Positions 1-12,550 of a DNA stretch of 49,313 nt are shown piece by piece. The stretch covers positions 1 to 49,313 of the forward strand of contig JBKJLC010000268.1 in the NCBI GenBank assembly GCA_046597055.1, written 5' to 3'. The first letter of the stretch is position 1. Every line of letters starts with the position of its first letter. The stretch comes from Kofleriaceae bacterium. GTDB lineage: Bacteria > Myxococcota_A > Polyangia > Haliangiales > Haliangiaceae. The position numbers were made by a program, and so were the translations under genes. Under the pieces are notes generated by a model. The model searched no databases. It was not told the origin of the DNA and was given only the letters and a program-made list of their open reading frames with translations.

Positions 1-74
1 ACCTGCTGCTGCAGCGTTGCGACCAGCGCGACGAGTTCGTCGTATGTGGGCGGCGTCGAGATCCTGGTATTCAG
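1..74 (-). CDS. 5' fragment of probable IS66 (ISBst12-group-like) transposase
   Basis: Frame reads LNTRISTPPTYDELVALVATLQQQV to the window edge, similar to the 'P.YDELVALV' coiled-coil start of single-ORF IS66 transposases. No in-frame ATG/GTG after the TGA at 95..93; candidates are CTG (74) or ATC (62). Confidence 0.5.
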   Translation of the reverse strand, partial: MNTRISTPPTYDELVALVATLQQQ

Positions 75-115
75 ATCCGATCGCTGCGGAAGTCAAGCAG
101 GACGTGAACGGTTAC
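1..115 (-). mobile_element. Probable left end of an IS66-family insertion sequence; element runs off the window
   Basis: Minus strand from 115 reads GTAACCGTTCACG, and IS66 ends typically start GTAA. It is followed by a TTGACT -35-like box (96..91) and an open frame resembling an IS66 transposase N-terminus. It also cuts an RBS-led ORF. Only one end is visible. Confidence 0.65.
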
Positions 116-129
116 AACTTCTTTTGCAT
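112..129 (-). pseudogene. Small gene MQKKL* truncated by the IS; candidate peptide precursor
   Basis: GGAG (142..139), 9 nt, then ATG CAA AAG AAG TTG TAA, starting 17 nt after the kinase stop. The TAA is supplied by the GTAA of the putative IS end. Confidence 0.55.
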
Positions 130-145
130 GATGATGATCTCCGAG

Positions 146-3100
146 TCAGTTGCTGAGAAACAGGCTTGAAAAGGCCATGAGAGAGCGGCGGCCCCAGAGA
201 ATTCCACGAACGCCGCAGATGCCAAAAATGTCGTCTGTCATGAAACGGGCGCAGAGCAGATCTGCATCATGAACTTGGATGGTGGCTATCCGAAAATCTT
301 CTAGGTCGAACACCATAACCTCGCCGGCGCTGACTGCGATAGCATAGCGTCCGCTCGGAGACTGTGAGATGTCTGCAATGCGCGTGTCTGACTTGAATTC
401 GTAGTCACGGAGGGGTGTGTGCAGCCAGAGCGAGAATCCCTTGCTCGCTAACCAGGTGTCACGGTGGACGACGAACTCTCGTAGAGGTCCGGACGCTTGA
501 GTGACAGCTAGCGGACGCAGGTCACGGCTCCAGTGGACCATCGTGGCGTCCGAGCTCGATGTGCGCAAACCATTGGCAGACCAATCCAGCGCGAAGATGA
601 AGCCTCGATGCACGCGGGATGTGTTCATCGAACGATCAGTCAGGCCGAACGTTGACAGCACGCCTTCTTGGTCTGTCGATGCGATGGAGCGGGCGTCCGG
701 GCTAAACACCAGCCGGTACGGCTCGGAGGCATGCTTATATAGGAGCGTCCGGCGGATACCGTCATAGGACCAAACCGAGCCATCGCTTACCAGATACGCC
801 AGCAACTCCCCATCGGGTGGGCTCGCGGACCAAGGTATCGGCTCCTTGTGTTTTGCGACGATCTCCGTGCGATGAGTATTCGTGTCGGTGCAGATCAACT
901 GGCCGTCCCATCCGCCAGAACAAACCCTCGAGCCAAGCCAAGACGGTTTGAAGGACAGGTCTTGATGCTTATGTAGGTGAACGATCTCATCCGCGAAAGG
1001 TTCTACTAGAGACACCGACCCGTCACGGCAGTCGACCGCAGCCGCGCCGCCCGTGGTTCTCGCCACGATGTTGAAGGGCGTGCAGTTCATGGGAAGCGTA
1101 GAGAGGCCGAGACCCGGACGAAGGCGCCAGCGGCGGATCTCCGGCCCGCCGACCGAGGTCAGCGTGCCCGTGGCACTATCGATGAGGACGAAAGCTACGA
1201 GCCCGCGGTGGCCAATGAACGTCCACACCGAATTCGTCTCGGTGTCGACGACGTGAATGGTGCCGTCAGTGTATCCCCAGGCCGCGATGCTACCGTCCGT
1301 GGCAACGCTAGTAGCCATCACGTCTGATGGTGGTCCAGAAACCGCAGCACCGGCTCCTGGCATGACTAGCCACGGCTGCCCGCGACTATCGACCGCGGCT
1401 ACGAGTCCGGAGCTGGACATTGACAGTTGATAGTCGTCGGTGGTCACGAAGTCCACGGTGCGCTTGCCGCGGCCGTGGCTAATGATCATGTTCTTATCGT
1501 TGCGCAGTGCGACGTAGTCCTCCCCCGAGGTCGCTAGATTGGATGGCATACCGTTATGTTTGCAGCGTCCCAACTGGCGACGAGGCTCACGCAAGGTCTC
1601 GAGATGCCCACCCACCGTGCAGAGTAGGAGGTCGCTTGCGCCGAGTGTCGCCATCCCGCGAACGCCGTCGCGCAGTTGGAGTGCCGCGCCCATTTTCGTT
1701 GAATGGAGACGCCCAGCCTGATCGAGAAGTAAGACGTCATCATCGATTGCAGCAGAGTACTGGGGGAACTGCGGCAACGAGCTCAGGTCGACGCTGGGCC
1801 CAACTGCGGGAGTGCGTTGCAGGCGCGGGCCGTCATCCGTGTTCTGACCGTAGACCCACGCGCCCTGCGCGCGGATCGTCGGGCTGGGTTCCATCAGTCT
1901 CGTGGCGATTACCTGCGTCGTACCATCATCAAGGTTCGCGAGATGGAGACGCCGGTCCGAGGTGCTCACGAGTACGTGAGGTGAACCACGCGTGGACTGT
2001 AGGTCTATGACGATGTAGGGCGAGTACGATAGGATTGAGTGTGCGGTGCCCGAACCATTCACTCGACTCTCGATCGTATCCCGCTCCGCCGAGGGGTTGA
2101 TGCGGTTGGAATCGAGCAGCGTCTTTGCGAGGGTGGGATCCTTCGCGAGCAGCAGTGCCGCTTCCGATATCAGGGCATGGTCGCGCTCTTGCTCTGCAGT
2201 TGCGCGTGCGGACCGCTCACGCTGCTGGGAAAATTCGGCCTTGATTTGCGCATCTCGGGCGCGGTCTCGCTCGTTCAGGATGGTCGCGATCGACCACGAT
2301 GCGGCGATGAAGGCGACAACCGATATGGCGAGGCTGATGATGGCCGCGCGGCGATGACGTCGCAGCCAATGCTCGAGCAGGGCGAAGAGGGAGTAGTGGC
2401 GCGACAGGATGCGCGCCCCGGCAGCGAACGCGTGCAGGTCGACACTGAGTGCGCGTGCGTCGGTGTGGCGGGCCTCGGATTGCTCGGCAGTAGCTTTGAC
2501 GACGATGGCAACTAGATCGGTCTCGATGCGGTTGGCACGCATCGTTTTGACGGCGTGCCGCACGTGGTCTCGATGAAGAGCCGCTCCAGTGCAGAGTTGG
2601 TAAAGCATCGCGCCGATGGCGTAGACGTCGGCGCGTTCGTCCACTGGCTCGCCTCGGGCTTGCTCGGGCGACATGTAGGCGGGGGTGCCGAGGATGGTGC
2701 CGGCGACGGTGACGCCGTCGTCGGCGGGGGCTTTGCGGTACGGGCCGTCGGGGGTCGGGTCGCCGGCGGGGTCGTCGGGGCCGGCTGCGATGTCCTTGGC
2801 GAGGCCCCAGTCGATGACGACGGTCTCGCCGAACTCGCCCACGATGACGTTCGAGGGCTTGAGGTCACGGTGGATGATCTTGTGGTCGTGGGCGTAGGCG
2901 ATCGCGTCGGCGACGGCGATGACGTTGGGGAGGAGGGCGAGGCGGTCCTCGAGGGTCTTGCAGTCGTCGATGAGCTCCTTCAGGGGGCGCCCGGCGACAA
3001 GCTTCATGGCGTAGAACGGGGTGCCGTCGGGCCAGCGGCCCGCCTCGTGGATCGGGACGATGCCGGGGTGCTCGAGGCGCGCGGTGATGAGGGCTTCGCG

Positions 3101-3733
3101 GAAGAAGCGGAGCTCGCTGGAGGTGCCGCGGTGAAGGAGTTCCTTGAGGGCGACGTCGCGACCGAGCTCCTTGTCGCGGGCGCGGTAGACGCGGCCCAGG
3201 CCGCCGCGGCCGTGCTCGGCGACGATCTGGTAGCGCTGGGGGTCGCGGTACTGGAGGGGTGCGGGGAGGCGCTCGAGGGGCGGGCGCGAGGTGAGCGGGG
3301 ATGGTGAGTCGGAGTCGTTGCTGTCGCGAGTGCGGGTGCGGGTGGGGTCGTCGTTGCCGGCGCGGCGGGGTGCGGGTGGCGAGGCAGCAGCGGCGGCGGG
3401 CGACCCGGCAGCGGCAGGCGCGGGCGACCGGGCGGCGGCGGGCGCCTGGGCAGCGACGGCGGGCGACCCGGCAGCAGCGGCCGCGGGCGACCCGGCCGCA
3501 GCGGCGGCGGGCGACCCGGCAGCATCGGCGGGTGGCGTCCCTGCGGGCGGGGTGGCTGGCAGTGGTACGGCCGCGCCGGATTCGTCGGACGAGGGGCTGG
3601 TCAGCTGGCTGTCTTCGCGACCCGAGGGACCTACACCGTGCGACACGACGAGCGGCGAATACGGCATGTCGGTCGGCGACGCAAGACCTATCGCCGACGG
3701 GTCGGCGGATGGGTTCTCGTCGGCAACTTTCAT
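146..3733 (-). CDS. Membrane Ser/Thr (Hanks-type) kinase with Pro/Ala-rich N-terminus, TM helix, coiled coil and C-terminal WD40-like propellers
   Basis: Motifs [66 protein letters not shown]-like repeats (GHRGLV, SGGWDG). Start moved from 3814 to ATG 3733 because a sigma54 promoter lies at 3749-3764. Confidence 0.92.
3385..3530 (-). repeat. Imperfect coding tandem repeat (about 24 bp, GSPAAAAA units) in the kinase N-terminus
   Basis: GGCGACCCGGC recurs four times plus a degenerate copy; protein reads [25 protein letters not shown]...[19 protein letters not shown]. Confidence 0.85.
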
Positions 3734-3748
3734 GGCGAGCGGCGCATC

Positions 3749-3764
3749 AGCACGCAGCGTGCCA
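3749..3764 (-). promoter_or_regulatory. Sigma54 (-24/-12) promoter for the kinase operon
   Basis: Minus strand TGGCACGCTGCGTGCT = TGGCACG-N4-GTGC with exact GG-N10-GC spacing; predicted TSS near 3738, just before ATG 3733. Confidence 0.75.
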
Positions 3765-3827
3765 GCGGCGGAGGCGGCGGAACCGCGCGGAGTTCCGTCC
3801 TGGGAGGCAGTCATGCGGGCTGTGTCG

Positions 3828-3931
3828 GTGTTCCGATACAGCGGTTGCGTGTTCCGGTGCGGTCAGGTGCGTGAATGTGCGGGGCGGCGTCGGAACACAT
3901 CGAGTGTTCCGGTGGTGTTCCGATCGTTCCG
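3828..3931. promoter_or_regulatory. Array of GTGTTCCG sites, candidate upstream activator sequences
   Basis: GTGTTCCG at 3828, 3849, 3904, 3915; inverted CGGAACAC at 3891 (palindrome CGGAACAC-atcga-GTGTTCCG, 3891-3911); partial GTTCCG at 3926. Start-to-start spacings of 21 and 11 bp. Confidence 0.7.
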
Positions 3932-4060
3932 ATCCGAGGCGGCGAGGGGGGGGATGTGTGAGGTGGGGGACAGGAATCGCAGGTCCATTCGTGGCAAGGG
4001 CTGGAACCGGGGCTCAAGGAGCGGATCGGAGCTGGTGCGGGTCGTGCTAATGGTCGCGAG

Positions 4061-5293
4061 ATGTCATGGCAGTGCCTCCTCGAGGGTGAGCTGAAGCAGC
4101 GGGCGATCGAGACCGCGGACGAGATCATCGCGGCGATCGCGGCCAGGCCGGACGGGACCGGTGCCCTGGACGGGGCCGGGGGGCATGCGTGCCTGATGGT
4201 GTACGCGGTGCACGCCGGGCGCGACGAGGCGCTGGCGGAGCGCGCGGCGGCGATGCTCGATGCGATGGTGACCGGGGTGAGCGAGGGGGGTGGGCGCGGG
4301 GCGCTGTGGGGCGGGCTGGCCGGGGCGCGGTTCACGGTGGCGCACCTGGCGGGTGGCGACGAGGCGGGTGAGGCGCTGCTGGCGATGGACGCGGCGCTGC
4401 TGACGATGCTCGCCGTGCCCGCCTGGGACCAGGATTACGACCTGATCGGTGGGCTGTGCGGGTTCGGGGTCGCGGCGCTCGAGGGCGGCGGCGAGGCCGA
4501 GCGGATCGCGGTGCGGGTGCTGGACCATCTGGAGGCGACGGCGCGGCACGAGCCGGAGGGCACGGCCTGGTACACGGCACCGGAGCTACTGCCGGAGTGG
4601 CAGCGTGCGGTGTGCCCCGATGGCTACTTCAATCTCGGGCTCGCGCACGGGATTCCCGGGGTGATCGGGTTCCTCGCGAAGCTGCTGGATGCGGGGGTCG
4701 AGGTGGAGCGGGCGCGGGTGCTGCTCGAGGGCGCCGTGCGCTGGATGTTGACGGTGGCGCCGGCGCGCGAGGGGGGCCGGTTCCCAGCGTGGCGCGGGCG
4801 GGGCGCGAACGACGAGCCGTCGCGGTTGGCCTGGTGTTACGGCGACCCGGGCGTGGCGGTGCCGCTGCTGGCGGCCGCGCGCGCGACCCGCAATGACCTG
4901 TGGGAAGCGCAGGCGATGGAGATCGCGCACGGGATGGCCGCGCGGCCGATGGCCACGAGTGGCGTGGCCGACATGGGCATCTGCCATGGTGCGGCCGGGG
5001 TCGCGCACATCTTCAATCGGCTGTACCAGGCGACTGGCGACGAGGTGCTGGGCGACGCGGCCCGGGCGTGGATCGAGCAACTGCTGGCGATGCGGCGGCC
5101 CGGCGAGGCGGTCGCCGGCTTTCCGTCGATGACGCGCGAGGAGGGCCGCGATATCTGGCAGGAGGATGCCGGGCTGCTGATGGGCGCGACCGGCGTCGGG
5201 CTGGTGCTGCTGGCCGCGACGTCGGAGATCGAGCCGGCCTGGGATCGCGCGCTGCTGTGCGAGATCGCGCCACCGGCGGACGCGCAGCCGTGA
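4061..5293 (+). CDS. lanC: Lanthionine synthetase C (class I LanC-type cyclase)
   Basis: DLIGG, NLGLAHGIPG, RLAWCYGDPG and GICHGAAG motifs; catalytic His and Cys/Cys-His zinc ligands are intact. Confidence 0.92.
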   Translation: MSWQCLLEGELKQRAIETADEIIAAIAARPDGTGALDGAGGHACLMVYAVHAGRDEALAERAAAMLDAMVTGVSEGGGRGALWGGLAGARFTVAHLAGGDEAGEALLAMDAALLTMLAVPAWDQDYDLIGGLCGFGVAALEGGGEAERIAVRVLDHLEATARHEPEGTAWYTAPELLPEWQRAVCPDGYFNLGLAHGIPGVIGFLAKLLDAGVEVERARVLLEGAVRWMLTVAPAREGGRFPAWRGRGANDEPSRLAWCYGDPGVAVPLLAAARATRNDLWEAQAMEIAHGMAARPMATSGVADMGICHGAAGVAHIFNRLYQATGDEVLGDAARAWIEQLLAMRRPGEAVAGFPSMTREEGRDIWQEDAGLLMGATGVGLVLLAATSEIEPAWDRALLCEIAPPADAQP

Positions 5294-5330
5294 CGGGCGC
5301 CAAGGGGACCAAACTGGCGGCGGGGCGGCC

Positions 5331-6728
5331 GTGACCGTCACGGACCTGACGCGGACGGTCAGCCACAGCGAGGACGAGGACGCGGCCGGCGGGGCCGGGG
5401 CCGAGCAGCCGCGGCTGGTGGTGGTGCTGGAGTGCCGGCAGCCGACGGCGCCGGCGCTGCGGGTGTCGCTGGCCGGGGTCGACCAGGTGACGCTCGGGCG
5501 CGGGCCGGTCCGGACGTGGACGCGCACGCGCGATCGGATGGACCTGGCGATTGGCGATCACGAGATGTCGCGCCAGCACGCGCGGCTGCAGCGCGGCGCC
5601 AGCGGGTGGGAGATTGTCGATCTCGGCTCGAAGAATGGCACGCTGGTCAATGGCGAGGTCGTGGTGAGGAGCGTGCTCGCCGATGGTGACGTCGTCGAGG
5701 TCGGCACCACCCTGCTGATGTTCCGCGAGGACCCCGGGCCCGGCGGCGAGGTGGTCGACCGTGATCTGGCGACCGAGGCCGCCACGCCGGCGGCGTTCCG
5801 CTCGCTGGCGCTGGAGCTCGAGGCCCGGATTGCCGATCTGATGAAGATCGCGCCGTCGCCGGTGCCGGTGCTGGTGCGCGGTGACACCGGCACGGGCAAG
5901 GAGCTGGTCGCGCGCGCCATCCACGACCGGTCGGGTCGGCGCGGGGCGTTCGTCGCGCTCAACTGCGGGGCCTTGCCGCGCACGCTGATCGAGAGCGAGC
6001 TATTTGGCTACCGGCGCGGCGCGTTCTCGGGCGCCAAGGAGGACCGCGAGGGCCTGGTCCGGCGGGCCGACGGCGGCACGCTGTTCCTCGACGAGATCGC
6101 CGAGCTGCCCGAGGAGTCGCAGGTCGCGCTGCTGCGGGTGCTGCAGGAGGGCGAGGTCCGGCCGATCGGCGCCAGCCAGGCGGTCAGCGTCGACGTGCGC
6201 GTGGTCGCGGCCACCCATCAGGATCTGCCGCGCCGGATCGTGGACGGACGGTTCCGTCAGGATCTGTACGCGCGCCTGGCCGGCTTCGAGATGACACTGC
6301 CGGCGCTGCGCGAGCGGCGCGAGGATCTGGGCACGGTGATCGCGTCGCTGTTGCCACGGCTGGAGGCGCTGGTGCCGGATCCGGCGCAGATCAGCTTTCA
6401 CCGGCAGGCCGCGCGGGCGCTGCTCGCGTATGCGTACCCGCTCAACGTGCGCGAGCTGGAGCAGGCGCTGCGCACGGCCGCGGTGCTGGCCGACGGCAAG
6501 GAGATCCGCGTCGAGCACCTGCCCGAGGCGATCCGGACCTACTCGCCGGCGGCGCCCGCGAGCGGGCTGCGGCCCGAGGACCGGGTGCTGCGCGAGCGGC
6601 TGGTCGAGGTGCTGCGCGCGCACGGCGGCAACGTGGCCGCCGCGGCGCGGGTGATGAGCAAGGCGCCGATCCAGCTGCGGCGCTGGTGCCGCCGGCTCGG
6701 GGTCGACCTGGCGGCGTTCCGCGGGTGA
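5331..6728 (+). CDS. FHA-domain sigma54-dependent enhancer-binding protein (FHA-AAA+-HTH)
   Basis: FHA motifs LGRG, MSRQH, SKNGT; Walker [21 protein letters not shown]; Walker [17 protein letters not shown]; Fis-type [12 protein letters not shown]. Confidence 0.95.
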
Positions 6729-6834
6729 GCGGCATCCAGCGCCCGCGGCCGAGCGGCCTCCAGCGCCGCGCCGCCACTGAGCGGCATCCATCGCCGCGCT
6801 CACCGCCGCGGCGTCCGTCGCGGCGCTCACCGCC
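6727..6834. repeat. Degenerate intergenic tandem repeat, four units of 24-28 bp
   Basis: GAGCGGC(A/C)TCCA at 6727, 6751, 6779; near-identical 27-mers at 6781-6807 and 6808-6834. Confidence 0.75.
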
Positions 6835-6894
6835 GGGGCCCATGGCCCGCCGGTCGCGGATCGTGACGATGACCTCACGTGCTAGGGTCGTCGC

Positions 6895-7062
6895 GTGAAC
6901 GCGATCGCCCCCGAGGTCGACCCCACGCTGATCGCGGAGATGCTCCGGCTCACGCCCGAGCAGCGGGTCGACCAGAACGACCAGATGCTCGCGATGATCG
7001 AGGAGCTGCGCCGTGGGCTCGCCCCAGCTCAAGAGCCTGCTGACGACGCTCGCCGCGGCTGA
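6895..7062 (+). CDS. 55-aa protein absent from the ORF track; probable partner/antitoxin of the nucleotidyltransferase-like gene
   Basis: GTG..TGA encodes MNAIAPEVDPTLIAEMLRLTPEQRVDQNDQMLAMIEELRRGLAPAQEPADDARRG; strong GC3 bias; TAGGGT 6 nt upstream; overlaps the next gene. Confidence 0.8.
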   Translation: MNAIAPEVDPTLIAEMLRLTPEQRVDQNDQMLAMIEELRRGLAPAQEPADDARRG

Positions 7063-7498
7063 GATCGAGCTCGTGCTGGTCGGCGGTCTCGCCGCCGTTG
7101 CGCAAGGAGCCCCGATCACGACGTTCGACGTCGACATCGTGCATCACCGCACGCCGGAGAACGTGGCGCGGCTGATCGCGGTGCTCACCACGATCGACGC
7201 GCGCTACCGTGGCCGCCCCGCCGGCGAGATCCTGCGGCCGACCGCCGCAATCCTGGCCGGACCGGGACACTCGCTGCTGATGACCGCCATGGGCCCCCTC
7301 GACGTCCTGGGCGCGATCGAGGGCGGACGCGACTACATGTCGCTGCTACCGGACACTGTGGTCAGCCGGTTCGGCGCGCACGAGGTGCGCATCCTCGCCC
7401 TGCCCGTCCTGGTCGAGCTGAAGCGGCATTCGACGCGGCCCAAGGACCAGCACATGCTGGCCGTCCTCCAGGAGACGCTGCGCCAGCAGCGGGGGTGA
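7013..7498 (+). CDS. Pol-beta-superfamily nucleotidyltransferase-like protein (candidate toxin)
   Basis: LVGGLA...TFDVD (hGG plus DxD) and C-terminal LVELKR..RPKD helix. Confidence 0.75.
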   Translation: MGSPQLKSLLTTLAAAEIELVLVGGLAAVAQGAPITTFDVDIVHHRTPENVARLIAVLTTIDARYRGRPAGEILRPTAAILAGPGHSLLMTAMGPLDVLGAIEGGRDYMSLLPDTVVSRFGAHEVRILALPVLVELKRHSTRPKDQHMLAVLQETLRQQRG

Positions 7499-7600
7499 CC
7501 GGGCGTACACCGCTCCCGACCTGCCCGATCGGCGGGCTCGGTCAGGTTGGTGCTCCCGGGCGAGGTCCAGGGGGCGCAGACGCGCTAGTGTGCACGGCCG

Positions 7601-10600
7601 ATGTCTCGACGTGCGGGTGACGCTGATCGCGAACGCGTGGTCGCCGGCCTGGCGTCGCGGGCGGTGCGTTGGTTCTCGGCGACGCCGATCCACAAGGCCC
7701 AGGCCTACGTGCGCGACCGGCGGGTCAAGATCACCGCCCTCGCCGCCCGGACCGCGATCGGACGGGTCCGCGAGCTGTACGCGGGCACCCAGACGGTGAA
7801 CATCGCCGCGCCGACCCATCGGACCGGGCTGCTGCGGGTCGGATGCTCGTGCCCCGACGGTGGCCGGGGCGAGGCCTGCCAGCACGTGTACGCCACGCTG
7901 CTCGCGCTCGATGCCCGTCAGGTCGATCTCGGCATCGGCGTGAGCGTGGCCGCGCTGGAGGTGGGCGAGCTGTGGCTCGAAGCCGGCGAAGACGCCGAGT
8001 GGGACGACGAGGACCACGACGACGAGGACAACGACGAGCTGCCGGTGCCGGCGGCTCCGGCCGCGGCCAGGCGCGCGGTGCCCGCGCTGGCCTCGGCGCC
8101 GGGGGCGGGTCGGGCGGCGCGGGGCCCGGCCTGGTCGGCGCGGCTCGAGTGGCTCGACAGCCTGTCGCCGGCGCGGACGCCGGCCCGGCCGTTCGCGATC
8201 GAATATCACCTCACGGCCGAGGACCCGCTCGATCCGGGCGGGACGCCGCGGGTGCTGCCGGCGCACGTCGAGGTGGTGACCCACCAGCGCGCCCAGCGGC
8301 AGAACGGCGCGCTGGGGCCGCGCACGCCGCTGCGGCTGTGGCTCGACGGCGACGACGTCGCGCCCGGACCCGGCGACGCGGAGGCGCTGGCCGCGCTGCG
8401 GCTCGGCGCGCCGCTGGCCGACGAGGCCGGGGCCGCGCCGTGGGTCGAGGCCGCGCGCAGCGCGCGCGGCACCCTCCGGTACCGGGGCGCGCGGATCCAT
8501 GCCGGCATCCTCGACCGGGTCATGCCGGTGCTGGCCGCGACCGACCGGCTGGGCTGGGTGCCCGCGCACGACGAGCCGGTCGAGTGCGCGCCCGAGTGGT
8601 TCCCGCTGCGCTGGGATGGCGACACCACCTTCGCGCTGGTGGTCTCGATCCGGGTGGCCGGCCGCGGGCTCGCCATCGACGCGGCGCTGGTGCGCGGCGA
8701 CGAGCGGCTGTCGCTGGCCGGCGTGACCGTCTTCTTCGGGGGCGGCTGCCTGGCGATCGACGACCGGCTGATCCGGGTCGAGGCCGGGGCGTCGCTGGCG
8801 CAGTGGTGGGCGATCGCCGGCCGCGAGCCGCTGACGGTGCCGCGCAGTCAGCTCACCAAGTTCGTGGAGCGCCTCGCCGGGCTCCCCGAGCTGCCGCGCC
8901 TCGAGCTGGAGCCGGCGGTGGGCTGGTCGGTCGAGGCGGTCGCGCCGACCCCGCACCTCGAGCTCGAGGAGCTGGCCGATCGCACCGGCTTCATCGCCAC
9001 CGTGGTGTTCCGGTATCGCGACGTGCGCGCGGTCACCGGGGCCGCGCGCGGCTTCGCGCTCGACCCGGTCAACCAGCGCCTGCACCCGATCGACCGCGCC
9101 GCCGAGGTGGCGCACCGGGCCGCCCTGCGCGGGCTCGGCGAGGTGCGCGGCACCGGGGACCTCGTCATCAACACCGACCAGCTGGCCGGCACGGTCGACA
9201 CGCTCGAGACCGCCGGCTGGCAGGTTTGGCTGCGCGCGAAGCGGGTCCGCAGCGGCGGCACGCTCAAGACCTCGGTGGTCTCGGGCATCGACTGGTTCGA
9301 GATCGCGCTGGTCGGCTCGATCGCCGACGTGCCGGTCGACGCGCTGGCGCTGATCGACGCACTGCGCGACGGCCAGCAGCTGGTGCGGCTGCGCGACGGC
9401 AGCCACGGCATCCTGCCCGCGGCCTGGCGCCAGCACGTCGACCTGGCCGAGCTCGGCTCGGTCGAGGATGGCCTGGTCAAGGTGCCGCGCAACCGGGCGC
9501 TGCGGCTCGACATGATGCTCGACGCGCTGCCCGAGGTCGATCGCGACGCGCGCTTCTGCAAGCTGCGCGACCGCCTGCACGACTTCGCGGGCGTGGTGCC
9601 GCACCCCGAGCCGGCCGGCTTCGTCGGCGAGCTGCGCGGGTACCAGCGCGAGGGCCTGGGCTGGCTGGCGTTCCTGCGCGAGCTCGGCTTCGGCGGCTGT
9701 CTCGCCGACGACATGGGCCTCGGCAAGACCGTGCAGGTGCTGGCGGCGATCGTCGAGTCGCAGCAGCAGCAGGGCGGCGCGCGCCGGCCGGCGCTGGTGG
9801 TCGCGCCGCGCAGCGTGGTGTGGAACTGGGTCGACGAGGCCGCGAAGTTCGCGCCCGGGCTGCGCGTGCTCGACTACAGCGGCCCCCTGCGCGGCCTGCG
9901 CGCGGCCGAGCTGGCCGACGCCGATCTGATCGTGACCAGCTACGCGACCATGCGGCTCGATCTCGACGCCCTGTCGCAGCGGACGTTCGGGTACGTCATC
10001 CTCGACGAGGCCCAGTCGATCAAGAACCCGGACTCGCAGCTCGCGCGGGCGGCGCGGGTGCTGCGCGGCGAGCACCGGCTGGCCCTCACCGGCACGCCGG
10101 TCGAGAACCACCTCGGCGATCTCGGCTCGATCTTCGAGTTCCTCAACCCCGGCATGCTCGGCGACGTCGACGCGCTGCGCCGGCTCAACGGGCGGGCCGC
10201 GGCGGCCCCCGGCGAGCTGGCGCCGCTGGCCCGCGCGCTGCGGCCGTTCATGCTGCGCCGGACCAAGGCCCAGGTCCTGCCCGAGCTGCCCGCGCGCTCC
10301 GAGCAGGTGCTGATGTGCCGGCTCGAGGGTCCGCAGCGGAAGTTCTACGACCAGCTGCGCGAGGGCTACCGCGCCTCGCTGCTGGCGAAGGTCGAGACCG
10401 ACGGCATGGCGCGGTCCGCGATGCACGTGCTCGAGGCGCTGTTGCGGCTGCGCCAGGCCGCGTGCGCCCCCGAGCTGGTGACCCCGGCGCGCGCCAAGGA
10501 TGGCAGCGCCAAGCTCGACCTCCTGCTCGAGCAGCTGGCCGAGGTGTGCGCCGAGGGCCACAAGGCGCTGGTGTTCTCGCAGTTCACGTCGTTCCTCACG

Positions 10601-11014
10601 CTGGTGCGGGCCCGCCTCGACGAGGCCGGCATCGTCCACGAGTACCTCGACGGCCAGACCCGCGATCGCAAGGCGCGGGTCGAGCGGTTCCAGTCCGACC
10701 CGGCCTGCCAGGTCTTCGTGATCAGCCTCAAGGCCGGCGGCACCGGCCTCAACCTGACCGCGGCCAGCTACGTGTACCTGCTCGACCCGTGGTGGAACCC
10801 GGCGGTCGAGGCGCAGGCGATCGACCGGACCCACCGCCTCGGTCAGGCCCGCGCGGTGACCGCGTACCGCGTGATCGCGGAGGACACCGTCGAGGACAAG
10901 ATCCTCGAGCTGCAGCGCAGCAAGCGCGCGCTGCTCGATGGCCTGTTCGCCGAGGATGCGGGCCAGCTGGCGTCGCTGACCGCGGCCGATCTCGCCGTGC
11001 TGCTCGGGCCGTAG
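7601..11014 (+). CDS. SWIM zinc finger-SNF2/SWI2 helicase-like ATPase
   Basis: SWIM CSCPDGGRGEACQH; LADDMGLGKT, ILDEAQ, LTGTPVEN, QAIDRTHRLGQ. Confidence 0.95.
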   Translation: MSRRAGDADRERVVAGLASRAVRWFSATPIHKAQAYVRDRRVKITALAARTAIGRVRELYAGTQTVNIAAPTHRTGLLRVGCSCPDGGRGEACQHVYATLLALDARQVDLGIGVSVAALEVGELWLEAGEDAEWDDEDHDDEDNDELPVPAAPAAARRAVPALASAPGAGRAARGPAWSARLEWLDSLSPARTPARPFAIEYHLTAEDPLDPGGTPRVLPAHVEVVTHQRAQRQNGALGPRTPLRLWLDGDDVAPGPGDAEALAALRLGAPLADEAGAAPWVEAARSARGTLRYRGARIHAGILDRVMPVLAATDRLGWVPAHDEPVECAPEWFPLRWDGDTTFALVVSIRVAGRGLAIDAALVRGDERLSLAGVTVFFGGGCLAIDDRLIRVEAGASLAQWWAIAGREPLTVPRSQLTKFVERLAGLPELPRLELEPAVGWSVEAVAPTPHLELEELADRTGFIATVVFRYRDVRAVTGAARGFALDPVNQRLHPIDRAAEVAHRAALRGLGEVRGTGDLVINTDQLAGTVDTLETAGWQVWLRAKRVRSGGTLKTSVVSGIDWFEIALVGSIADVPVDALALIDALRDGQQLVRLRDGSHGILPAAWRQHVDLAELGSVEDGLVKVPRNRALRLDMMLDALPEVDRDARFCKLRDRLHDFAGVVPHPEPAGFVGELRGYQREGLGWLAFLRELGFGGCLADDMGLGKTVQVLAAIVESQQQQGGARRPALVVAPRSVVWNWVDEAAKFAPGLRVLDYSGPLRGLRAAELADADLIVTSYATMRLDLDALSQRTFGYVILDEAQSIKNPDSQLARAARVLRGEHRLALTGTPVENHLGDLGSIFEFLNPGMLGDVDALRRLNGRAAAAPGELAPLARALRPFMLRRTKAQVLPELPARSEQVLMCRLEGPQRKFYDQLREGYRASLLAKVETDGMARSAMHVLEALLRLRQAACAPELVTPARAKDGSAKLDLLLEQLAEVCAEGHKALVFSQFTSFLTLVRARLDEAGIVHEYLDGQTRDRKARVERFQSDPACQVFVISLKAGGTGLNLTAASYVYLLDPWWNPAVEAQAIDRTHRLGQARAVTAYRVIAEDTVEDKILELQRSKRALLDGLFAEDAGQLASLTAADLAVLLGP

Positions 11015-11035: not shown

Positions 11036-12550
11036 CTACCGCGCGGCCGGGCCGCTCGCGCCGCTCGCCTCGCGACCGACCAGGTCGGGGATGCACGAGG
11101 CGATGTCGAAGATCATGAACAGGAGCACCTTCTCCTGCGGGGTGAGCGACGTGACCGGCGTGGTGCATCCCCCCGACGGGAAGGAGAGGGACGAGCTCGA
11201 TCGGTCGGCGGCGACGTGGATGTCCGAGAACACCACGCGACCGCAGCGCTGGTCGGCGGGCTGCTCGAGTGGGGTCGTGAACGACAGGTACTGCACCGAC
11301 GGGACGTTGTTGTCGTTGGTGGGCACGTGGATCCAGCGCTGGGCGAGCATCGGCGCGACCATGCTGACCGTGTGCTTGGCGGCGGTCAGCGGGATCTTGC
11401 CGAGCACGGTCGACGCCTGGACGTTCAGCAGCCACTGCGCCAGCTCGGCGCCCCGCACCGACGCCTGATCGACATCGGCGGTGACGCTGCCGAGGTCTCT
11501 GAGGTTTTCGACCCGCGTGATCGCGGACGGCCACGGCTGCGGGCTGCTGTCGAGCCAGATGTTGTGCCAGTGTGAAGCGAACACGCGGCCACCGGCATCG
11601 GCGTAGGCCTTCATCGCCGCGAGCGCCGCGTCCGGCTTGGTCTCGGGCCGCGGCGAGCCCTCGCACGACAGGAACACGACGTCGTATTGCGACAGGCTCG
11701 GCAGGTCGTCCCACAGCGTGGTCGCGTTGGGGAAGTCCGCGCCGCCATTGCCGTTGTCGAACCGATCGGTGCCGTTGCCGGTGAACAGATGGATGCGGCC
11801 GGTGCCCGACGGCGTGGTGATCTCGGCGTCGTCGACGCCGACCTTGCGCAGCAGGCACTCGAGCGCGTCGAAGCTGCCGGTGGTCACCGCCATGCGCGGG
11901 ATGTTGCCCTCGGTCTTGTTGCGGGGCAGCCGGGTCTCGGCGGCCGTCATCGGCGTGTCGATACACTCGGCCACGAACGGGATCCGCACCTGCCGTCGCC
12001 AGCGACCGACCTGGAGCACCAGCGGCACGTCGGCGGTGGCCGGCACGTTCTCGAGCACGAACCGACCGTTGGTGTCGGTGGTGGTCTGGACCAGCGGCGA
12101 CGACAGCACCGTCGAGCACCGGTCGCACGCCAGCTGATCCGCGAACGGCTCGACCGGGCCGTTGGGCACGTACACCGTGATGCCCGACAGGGGCAGCGTG
12201 CCGTTGGGCGCGTACACGGTGCCGCTCACCGAGGTGGTCCCGCCGAGCGTGCACGACACCTGGAAGCACTCGAGCCCGACGCACGGCGTCTCCGCCAGGC
12301 AGCGGCCGTCGGCGGTGCAGGTCTGCCCGTCGGGACAGGTGGCGCTGCCCGGCGCGCAATCCTGGCCGCAGCGACCGTCGCTCTGGCAGTAGAACCCGGC
12401 CGCGCAGGTGCTGGCGGCGCCGGGCCGCGGATCGCACGTCATCCCGCACGCGGCCGGCGGCTCATCGCCGTCGCAGGTGCCAGTGCCGGTCGGGCTGGGC
12501 CCACACGCAGCGATGAAGCCGAGCACGATCACGACGATGAGCTTGCGCAT
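11036..12550 (-). CDS. Cys-rich lipoprotein with carboxypeptidase-regulatory-like beta domain
   Basis: Signal MRKLIVVIVLGFIAA-C; Cys-rich repeats; SVSGTVYAPNG...TDTNGRFVL. Start corrected from 12685. Confidence 0.8.
   Translation of the reverse strand: MRKLIVVIVLGFIAACGPSPTGTGTCDGDEPPAACGMTCDPRPGAASTCAAGFYCQSDGRCGQDCAPGSATCPDGQTCTADGRCLAETPCVGLECFQVSCTLGGTTSVSGTVYAPNGTLPLSGITVYVPNGPVEPFADQLACDRCSTVLSSPLVQTTTDTNGRFVLENVPATADVPLVLQVGRWRRQVRIPFVAECIDTPMTAAETRLPRNKTEGNIPRMAVTTGSFDALECLLRKVGVDDAEITTPSGTGRIHLFTGNGTDRFDNGNGGADFPNATTLWDDLPSLSQYDVVFLSCEGSPRPETKPDAALAAMKAYADAGGRVFASHWHNIWLDSSPQPWPSAITRVENLRDLGSVTADVDQASVRGAELAQWLLNVQASTVLGKIPLTAAKHTVSMVAPMLAQRWIHVPTNDNNVPSVQYLSFTTPLEQPADQRCGRVVFSDIHVAADRSSSSLSFPSGGCTTPVTSLTPQEKVLLFMIFDIASCIPDLVGREASGASGPAAR

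Follow-up and report, generated by a model that had tools for sequence, protein, structure and literature searches.

Autoinduction of the lanthipeptides nisin and bovicin proceeds through a histidine kinase and a response regulator (PMC10663231, PMC11876861), and peptide-controlled lanthipeptide and bacteriocin clusters have so far been described with histidine kinases. The locus analyzed here lies at the beginning of contig C279 of the Kofleriaceae genome G000; the entire 49,313-bp contig, which starts inside an insertion sequence (IS), is referred to as the window. It contains, on one strand, the gene of a membrane Ser/Thr kinase followed by the start of a lanthipeptide precursor gene (lanA) and, on the other, genes of a LanC-type cyclase and of an FHA-domain sigma54 activator, with an array of CGGAACA repeats and two divergent sigma54-type promoters between them (Table 1). 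Taken as a whole, the locus is reasonably probably what is left of a class I lanthipeptide cluster, its regulatory core included; in this cluster the kinase would act through the FHA activator and the array on both promoters, and it has decayed in this genome.

The nisin (NisRK), subtilin (SpaRK) and bovicin HJ50 (BovKR) clusters resemble this locus in that each combines lanthipeptide genes with a membrane sensor kinase and an activator of its own, and in a positive feedback layout in which the precursor and biosynthetic operons are apparently under that activator. The present system differs from them in (i) the sensor, a Hanks-type Ser/Thr kinase with predicted periplasmic tandem propellers instead of a histidine kinase, (ii) the output, an FHA-AAA+ sigma54 activator instead of an OmpR-type response regulator, (iii) the sigma54-type promoters, located just 12–15 nucleotides (nt) from the start codons, (iv) the Gram-negative myxobacterial host and (v) the fusion of the peptide gene to the kinase operon. 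The replacement of a histidine kinase by a Hanks kinase had been proposed in a first-pass annotation made from the letters alone; the Pkinase match of the sensor and the presence of an FHA domain, and of no receiver domain, in the activator bear this out.

Individual parts of the arrangement have counterparts elsewhere. FHA-domain sigma54 enhancer-binding proteins of Myxococcus xanthus, tied to fruiting-body development, were reportedly described by Jelsbak, Givskov and Kaiser in 2005. They are said to share with the activator of the window the FHA plus AAA+ architecture, the phylum and a presumed Ser/Thr kinase input, whereas no description was found that ties any of them to lanthipeptide genes, a defined CGGAACA array or a cognate kinase-peptide operon. 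The agr and comCDE pherotype cassettes also hold a peptide gene and a putative receptor in one operon, and in them, too, sensor and peptide vary much more than the other components; in contrast to them, the locus described here has other kinase and regulator classes and another sigma factor, maturation would involve LanB/LanC and a C39 exporter, and the ligand-receptor relation is putative.

In Planctomycetota and Myxobacteria, membrane Ser/Thr kinases with periplasmic WD40/TPR arrays have been expanded by duplication (PMC11032199). These kinases, as well as PknD-type propeller kinases, have the same layout, in which a single membrane helix joins a cytoplasmic Pkinase domain to a sensor of periplasmic repeats or propellers; they are described with neither ligand nor partner, whereas here a gene for a predicted secreted peptide follows the kinase gene and a sigma54-type enhancer and promoter precede it. 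The class I afa cluster of Aetherobacter fasciculatus combines LanB, LanC and a sigma54-interacting regulator, AfaO (PMC11876861). It differs in containing an M4 peptidase and an F420 reductase; the passages of that article consulted mention neither a kinase or FHA domain nor a promoter or enhancer, and AfaO is assigned by annotation only (PMC11876861). The full-text literature, within which subscription journals are mostly not covered, yielded no description joining a Hanks kinase, an FHA-sigma54 activator and a lanthipeptide or double-glycine peptide, in line with the remark of the first-pass annotation that no such arrangement was known. The kinase-FHA-sigma54 control unit with its peptide gene may be a new kind of peptide signaling.

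The G000 assembly (8.38 Mb, 303 contigs, 94% complete, 7.55% contamination) represents a soil myxobacterium, and named relatives found on the basis of LanC are Myxococcota (labeled Myxococcales or Kofleriaceae) and many Acidobacteriota. Three soil-metagenome runs of a single study carry the stretch as Logan contigs. Five orthologous loci were available for comparison: the window, those of G012, G004 and G005 (all of one genus) and L022 (Kofleriaceae).

LanC homologues are distributed patchily, with 13 positive genomes among 41 relatives and 5 among 16 of the same genus, and the divergent kinase and LanC gene pair is kept in the three same-genus genomes G012, G004 and G005. In each of these, LanC is directly followed by a full-length LanB gene (PF04738, Lant_dehydr_N, E 1e-140 to 1e-149; PF14028, Lant_dehydr_C), and the cluster closes with an FHA-sigma54 activator that is 65–69% identical to that of the window. 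Beyond LanB, the G012 and G005 clusters contain genes of a GAF-HlyD protein, a C39-peptidase ABC exporter and HlyD, while L022 has the kinase on one side and LanC-LanB-GAF-HlyD-C39-ABC-HlyD on the other. Exporter genes occur in the clusters of G012, G005, L022, L001 and L013, the last two having LanC and the exporter without LanB. LanB and LanC enzymes make lanthionines.

A precursor gene was identified at the kinase stop codon of these relatives. In G012, an open reading frame (ORF) encoding 57 amino acids (aa) begins 33 nt past this codon; the leader of its product is Lys-rich at the start and terminates in AAGG, and the 21-aa core contains Ser and two Cys residues. Equivalent ORFs are found at the same place in G005 (one Cys) and L022 (five Cys), and the G004 contig runs out inside the kinase gene. 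None of the NCBIfam models matched the precursors. Their leader type is characterized by a Lys-rich start, the motif LxLxKETLRxL, an acidic stretch and GG, followed by Cys-, Ser- and Thr-rich cores. Double-glycine leaders direct export by C39-type transporters, and the leaders fit the exporter of the clusters.

Neighboring genes were surveyed within 8 kb of LanC at 79 loci taken from the public genome collection. The profile of the leader type was matched beside LanC at 37 of these loci at E≤1e-2 and at 21 at E≤1e-4. LanB was a neighbor at 37 loci, a C39-ABC exporter at 27, GAF-HlyD at 20, a sigma54 AAA+ domain at 11, a related kinase domain at 8 and an FHA domain like that of the window at 2. 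These counts indicate that the LanC family belongs to class I lanthipeptide clusters generally, and that the module of kinase and FHA activator is peculiar to a few Myxococcota.

Several peculiarities of the related loci were also recorded. The G005 kinase gene (L095 10968–14339) is spread over three frames, implying two frameshifts (near 11880–12030 and 12470–12550), and is either a pseudogene or a carrier of assembly errors. L022 contains, on one strand (335–7967), kinase 1, lanA and kinase 2, both kinases being encoded by paralogous kinase-propeller genes. In G023 (L094 7526–10624), LanC is fused to the GAF-HlyD protein in one 1032-aa frame, no LanB lies nearby, and a Uma2-family gene separates this frame from the activator gene. 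Four loci of Thermoanaerobaculia (L035, L040, L055, L076) have two or three tandem LanC paralogues, behind which a double-glycine-leader precursor is encoded whose core is rich in CT(x)AC; LanB was not detected within the stretches examined, some of which lie on short contigs.

The window contains a single match to TGGCAC-N6-TGC, TGGCACGCTGCGTGC at 3764..3750(-), which is not significant alone (0.53 matches expected; at least one present in 39 of 100 shuffles). Predicted promoters with the -24 GG and -12 GC elements, represented in the window by TGGCACGCTGCGTGC and TGGTGCGGGTCGTGCT, are conserved at all five orthologous loci, where both of them end 12–15 nt before the start codons (window 4033–4063 and 3731–3764; L092, L093, L095, L022); the kinase-facing promoter of the window ends 15 nt before ATG 3733. 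These distances would give leaderless or nearly leaderless transcripts. The genome encodes sigma54 (rpoN; PF04552 match on C253, E 3.2e-65). This sigma factor needs an AAA+ activator bound upstream.

The repeat array between the promoters is far beyond chance. Eight of the 32 CGGAAC/GTTCCG hexamers of the window fall within it, including a perfect inverted pair, CGGAACAC-N5-GTGTTCCG, at 3889–3911. It is the top hexamer cluster of the 8.38-Mb genome (background of 0.45 hexamers per kb) and the sole genomic site with at least three CGGAACA heptamers within 200 bp. The spacer between the kinase and LanC genes has diverged among the orthologous loci (mean column identity of 56%), and all five keep the same order of elements: (i) a LanC-facing TGG(T/C)NN-N5-GTGCTA, 12–14 nt before the LanC start, (ii) CGGAACA in three direct copies and, behind them, an inverted TGTTCCG, (iii) one or two more CGGAACA-type sites and (iv) GGCAC-N5-(G/C)TGCT facing the kinase. 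Among the 102 loci in the collection at the time of the survey, at least four hexamers per 200 bp occur only in the five orthologous loci and in L047. The L047 cluster was rejected as an unrelated tandem repeat, and the other two hexamer clusters of G000 were also discarded, one on C58 (a duplication adjoining a transfer RNA-like stretch) and one on C129 (inside coding sequence). The promoter that had been read ahead of the kinase gene is therefore present and conserved in 5/5 loci, with a second one facing LanC; the array described as having six sites is real, and the densest of the genome, but has eight hexamers.

Table 1. Features of the first 6,728 nt of the window.
Feature	Position	Strand	Basis or remarks
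Right end of ISb, a 1487-bp IS66-family element	1..115	-	Transposase N-terminus; DDE_Tnp_IS66, E 1.5e-35
lanA, 5′ stump	116..129	-	ATG at 129-127, three further codons (MQKK) and 2 nt
Hanks Ser/Thr kinase, receptor-type	146..3733	-	Pfam Pkinase, E 1.4e-32; longest ORF 146..3814 (1222 aa)
Tandem beta-propeller sensor, extracytoplasmic (predicted)	149..2044	-	AlphaFold2 and Foldseek
Single transmembrane helix	2285..2341	-	Residues 492-510; RRHRR just before; Kyte-Doolittle mean 2.23
Kinase catalytic domain	2525..3232	-	Pkinase, residues 195-430 of the 1222-aa frame
Sigma54-type promoter facing kinase-lanA	3749..3764	-	TGGCACGCTGCGTGCT
Array of 8 CGGAAC/GTTCCG hexamers	3778..3931	.	Candidate enhancer (upstream activating sequence) common to both promoters
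Sigma54-type promoter facing LanC	4033..4048	+	TGGTGCGGGTCGTGCT; ends 12 nt before ATG 4061
LanC-type lanthionine cyclase, 410 aa	4061..5293	+	PF05147, E 4.9e-39
FHA-AAA+ sigma54 activator (enhancer-binding protein), 465 aa	5331..6728	+	FHA, PF00498, E 9.6e-15; Sigma54_activat, PF00158, E 9.9e-62

As shown in Table 1, the longest kinase frame extends to ATG 3814. Since this start would place the promoter inside the gene, ATG 3733 is favored, also from comparison with the relatives. Catalytic-domain motifs, including DWG, are legible in the translation, and the NCBIfam PknD model matches the kinase domain (E 3.4e-47, under its cut-off). The helix is by far the most hydrophobic 19-residue stretch of the protein on the Kyte-Doolittle scale. 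Several beta-propeller Pfam models match residues 780–1200, all below their cut-offs. The C-terminal 711 aa, modeled with AlphaFold2 from a four-sequence alignment, form a long helix followed by an all-beta part of about 60 strands (mean predicted local distance difference test score, pLDDT, of 78), for which the top Foldseek matches are tandem WD40 propellers, e.g. the Utp21 tandem WD domain and Apaf-1 (probability 1.0). On this model the kinase has two predicted propellers, located on the non-cytoplasmic side. A Pkinase domain, one helix and an extracytoplasmic sensor are the features of a Hanks-type receptor kinase, and the membrane kinase with a C-terminal propeller noticed in the first-pass annotation is in this respect confirmed.

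The kinase domain is 71–90% identical to those of the orthologues, and the sensor domain just 22–32%. The sensor also has an atypical guanine-plus-cytosine (GC) content of 0.60, compared to 0.71–0.74 elsewhere in the locus; the GC content of the window is about 72% overall and only 0.55–0.63 over its first 2 kb. Low GC is common to the sensor and lanA in 4/4 loci (0.57–0.65 versus 0.70–0.78 for the rest). The joint low GC content and divergence of sensor and lanA would fit the pattern of a variable specificity module. Within the N-terminal region of the kinase (window 3290–3560) there is a low-complexity, Ala/Pro-rich stretch in which the unit GSPAAAAA is repeated; this stretch is missing from the kinase N-termini of the orthologues, themselves poorly conserved.

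On the opposite strand, LanC and the FHA-sigma54 activator were found as first read. The LanC motifs GLAHG, (A)WCYG and CHG align with those of NisC (2g02) and presumably supply the His, Cys and Cys-His ligands. The G000 assembly encodes exactly one LanC, whose matches in the structure database include 8byk (E 8.5e-24), NisC (E 8e-10) and LANCL1 (E 2.5e-7). FHA domains bind phosphothreonine, and the residues GR, SRQH and NG, corresponding to the conserved Gly-Arg, Ser-x-x-His and Asn-Gly of FHA domains, are seen in the activator translation; phosphopeptide binding by this domain is only predicted. The activator falls into a clade with 100/100 support together with the cluster-linked activators of G004, G005, G012 and G023 and a paralogue on C260; there are at least 22 homologues of it in G000.

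The cytoplasmic part of the kinase has more than 360 matches at E≤1e-70; they are spread over 47 of the 61 genomes searched within the order, with up to 20 per genome, and most of the frames matched are 1000–1250 aa long. The 20 closest loci beyond those already known were examined as paralogous kinase loci; G078, flagged as unpublished, was left out. A double-glycine-leader ORF is present at the kinase stop codon in 7 of the 17 loci at which the kinase is full-length and its 3′ end visible; five of these ORFs begin 5–29 nt past the stop, and two were found by profile, one of them overlapping the stop. Together with 4/4 orthologous loci, a peptide gene is thus located 5–35 nt after the kinase stop, or overlapping it, in 11 loci. 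Clusters of at least three CGGAAC hexamers occur upstream of the kinase in 9 of 18 paralogous loci with at least 400 nt of upstream sequence, and in each of the nine the array is closely followed, downstream, by a single GGC(A/C)C-N5-NTGCT site (the background of this relaxed motif in the genome is 0.18 per kb per strand). In three paralogous loci (L136, L138 and L142), the kinase and a same-clade activator, 71–75% identical in the AAA+ part, are encoded divergently without an intervening LanC; L142 has LanB downstream. Further pairs of a kinase and an FHA activator are located in G000 on C129 and C199. The linkage that the first-pass annotation had suggested looking for does recur, both as a kinase with a same-group activator and as a kinase-peptide pairing. 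The recurring unit is an enhancer array with a predicted sigma54 promoter, a receptor-type kinase gene and a putative secreted-peptide gene, with an FHA activator and sometimes lanthipeptide enzymes nearby.

Two G000 loci of this family have features of their own. The divergent FHA-activator and kinase pair of C199 (16150–16700) has its own promoter-like site, GGCACGTTCCCTGCT, and GTAACAC / GTTACAC repeats where CGGAACA would be, which suggests paralogous modules with different enhancer specificity. On C190 (L101, 336–11740), a canonical-WD40 kinase (kinase domain 73% identical) is accompanied by a C39-ABC exporter, HlyD and two double-glycine-leader ORFs; there is no LanB or LanC in this cluster, and the contig begins just before the kinase.

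The window copy is a decayed member of this family, in which the kinase, LanC and activator frames are still intact. Its first 115 nt, ending with the terminal inverted repeat of the IS66-family element ISb at position 115, are 100% identical to C282:1882–1996 and C139:1–115. The kinase stop codon (146–148) is followed by 16 nt and the lanA ATG, and the insertion leaves the short stump listed in Table 1. Three right ends of ISb (C282, C139, C279) and three left ends are present in the assembly, both kinds occurring on C282 (element at 510–1996); C119 and C139 have 7/8 flanking bases in common, as one insertion would give. The third left end consists of only the first 12 nt of the element (C219:7765–7776), followed up to the contig end by an IS21-family element (2692 bp, IstA and IstB genes, inverted repeats starting with TGCG; region 7765–10468 of C219, L103). 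Two side-by-side insertions were considered here and dropped in favor of an IS21-family element nested in the single-ORF IS66-family one, 12 nt inside its left end. Two of the three ISb copies lack a target-site duplication.

Since the other ISb ends are accounted for, the C219 end pairs with the window by elimination. The minus strand of C219 (7764..7634) continues the lanA stump in frame, giving a 48-aa ORF with a leader ending in GG (encoded by the C219 part) and a 20-aa core with 7 Ser/Thr and no Cys residues, and the GC content of C219 at 5–8 kb (0.58–0.65) is at the same low level as in the first kilobases of the window. Judged from these features, the window and C219 are probably neighbors across the IS. 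A core without Cys could form no lanthionine. Behind the lanA remainder, C219 (3128–7422) carries low-GC genes of a prolyl oligopeptidase (S9) and of a second FHA-sigma54 activator, 42% identical to that of the window; neither is conserved beside lanA in the relatives. Another S9 peptidase gene follows the GAF-HlyD / C39-ABC genes of C245.

Other genes of the cluster are missing from the locus. The LanC stop codon lies only 37 nt before the activator start, and LanB and the exporter are hence absent from the locus. The sole LanB of the assembly is on C42, beside a GAF-HlyD gene, with no CGGAAC array or sigma54-like site upstream; no C39-ABC exporter is encoded in the first 11 kb of the window, the nearest copies being on C245 and C190. 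The genome search proposed in the first-pass annotation thus recovers one LanB and C39 exporters elsewhere in the genome, but none at the locus. Of the small gene placed there behind the kinase, the lanA start is present, but only as a stump. A lanthipeptide circuit holds insofar as the LanB, exporter and precursor genes of the relatives define a class I setting, but it is not intact in G000, and the claim that the peptide is cyclized does not stand for this genome, with lanA interrupted. As to the Cys/Ser/Thr-rich peptide sought after removal of the IS, half of it is found, in the form of a core rich in Ser/Thr but lacking Cys.

In the intact form of the system, as seen in the relatives, the CGGAACA array lies between two divergent sigma54-type promoters and would serve both. 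One promoter would drive a bicistron of the membrane Ser/Thr kinase, with its cytoplasmic kinase domain and periplasmic propellers, and lanA; the other would drive the lanC-lanB-exporter genes, with the FHA-sigma54 activator gene last. A signal at the propellers would activate the kinase, and the FHA domain of the activator would read the phosphothreonines of the kinase, so that the activator is recruited or released. It would then assemble on the array and open both promoters, and kinase, peptide, modification enzymes and activator would rise together in a positive feedback. With the kinase gene at the head of one operon and the activator gene at the end of the LanC operon, such a loop would reinforce itself.

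Several observations weigh against this reading of the locus. The AAA+ loop of the activator is GAFSGA, whereas GAFTGA is the canonical loop of sigma54 activators, and no helix-turn-helix domain was matched by Pfam in residues 393–465 even at E≤10, which makes binding of the activator to the array only putative. The array is absent in 9 of 18 paralogous kinase loci and an activator is nearby in just 3 of 20; G023 has kept the activator and LanC, with no kinase within 10 kb and no array, and parts of the system can therefore separate. The link between the window and C219 rests on the parity of IS ends, the reading frame and the GC content. In the three soil-metagenome runs there is neither a bridging contig nor an IS-free joint, and contigs stop at the IS junction, their pieces beginning at position 88 and covering fewer than 31 nt of the IS; the IS part has about 10 times the depth of the unique part. 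The flanks in the window and C219 show no target-site duplication, and the expected 8-bp duplication AACTTCTT, searched for in the assembly as the other side of the IS, gave no match. The hidden Markov model of the leader gives the read-through product merely 14.2 bits (E 0.17 genome-wide). Given the 7.55% contamination of the assembly, the C42 LanB might come from another organism. No RNA run is listed as carrying the stretch.

The role of the peptide can be explained in two ways. The exported mature peptide may be the ligand of the propellers, each kinase-peptide pair forming a self-contained quorum or kin signal; such full autoinduction is possible, if somewhat doubtful. It agrees with the joining of the peptide gene to the kinase operon (4/4 orthologous and 7/17 paralogous loci), with sensors that are only 22–32% identical where the kinase domains are 71–90% identical, with the unrelated peptide cores, and with the shared low GC content of sensor and lanA in four loci, which fits a variable specificity module. 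The ligand role of the peptide is nevertheless putative, co-transcription would equally suit a kinase-controlled bacteriocin, the peptide gene of G000 is destroyed while the kinase is intact, and four orthologous loci are too few to test covariation. A prediction of the complex of the G012 sensor with its 57-aa precursor scored 0.01, against a mark of 0.34, and counts neither way. Alternatively, the kinase would sense an external cue (a competitor, prey or envelope damage), and the peptide would be the output only, an antimicrobial lanthipeptide made on demand. This is rather unlikely, and the gene architecture is the same in both cases. Bacteriocin systems typically comprise Cys-rich cores and a C39-ABC exporter with HlyD partners, and membrane kinases with periplasmic WD40 arrays and no assigned ligand are common in myxobacteria and planctomycetes (PMC11032199). 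The atypical composition and joint divergence of the sensor and the peptide gene are, however, left unexplained by an output-only role, as is the fusion of the peptide gene to the kinase operon at loci without LanB/LanC (about 7–11 kb examined on each side).

Two further possibilities concern the partners of the kinase and of LanC. The size of the kinase subfamily (E≤1e-70 in 47/61 genomes, up to 20 each), the at least 22 activator homologues of G000 and the 17 of 20 paralogous kinase loci without a nearby activator would be compatible with an activator and a kinase that just flank a common promoter region, the FHA domain reading another kinase. This is improbable in view of the linkage of same-clade activators to same-subfamily kinases in seven loci (window, G012, G004, G005, L136, L138, L142), and of an array that goes with kinase genes even where LanC is absent. 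Eukaryotic LanCL proteins have been reported as thiol transferases acting on dehydroamino acids. By analogy, LanC without LanB might transfer thiols to dehydroamino acids of proteins, e.g. of the neighboring kinase: LanC is intact beside the kinase although LanB has gone from the locus, L001 and L013 likewise have LanC and an exporter without LanB, and LANCL1, a glutathione S-transferase by its PDB name, is among the LanC matches (E 2.5e-7). LanC is closer to bacterial cyclases (8byk, E 8.5e-24; NisC, E 8e-10), LanB directly follows LanC in G012, G004, G005 and L022, and one LanB is encoded elsewhere in the genome, which makes a transferase role very improbable. The regulatory core of a class I cluster, with the kinase signaling to the FHA activator, is retained as the preferred explanation.

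A broader proposal is advanced only tentatively and is, in its full form, unlikely: a large and diversifying order-wide family of self-contained peptide-signaling cassettes, each with a sigma54 enhancer and promoter, a propeller receptor kinase and, immediately behind the kinase gene, the gene of its own secreted, often lanthionine-modified ligand, the kinase acting via phosphothreonine on an FHA-sigma54 activator. If true, quorum sensing or kin discrimination would run on a receptor kinase and its peptide ligand in a eukaryote-like fashion, with sensor and peptide varying in the manner of pherotypes. The cassette offers concrete pairs for study (a kinase with its peptide, a kinase with an FHA activator, an activator with the CGGAACA site) and bears on the ligands of hundreds of propeller kinases of myxobacteria and planctomycetes, as well as on the inputs of FHA-sigma54 activators. 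The family also marks unexplored Gram-negative lanthipeptide clusters and a possible way to switch them on; the window copy is chiefly useful as a pointer to it.

The region 3′ of the activator gene (window 6895–11014) contains two small overlapping ORFs (55 and 161 aa), neither of them matched by Pfam, and an ORF of 1137 aa that resembles an SNF2-type helicase in translation. A paralogue, 76–77% identical in DNA, is located on C282.

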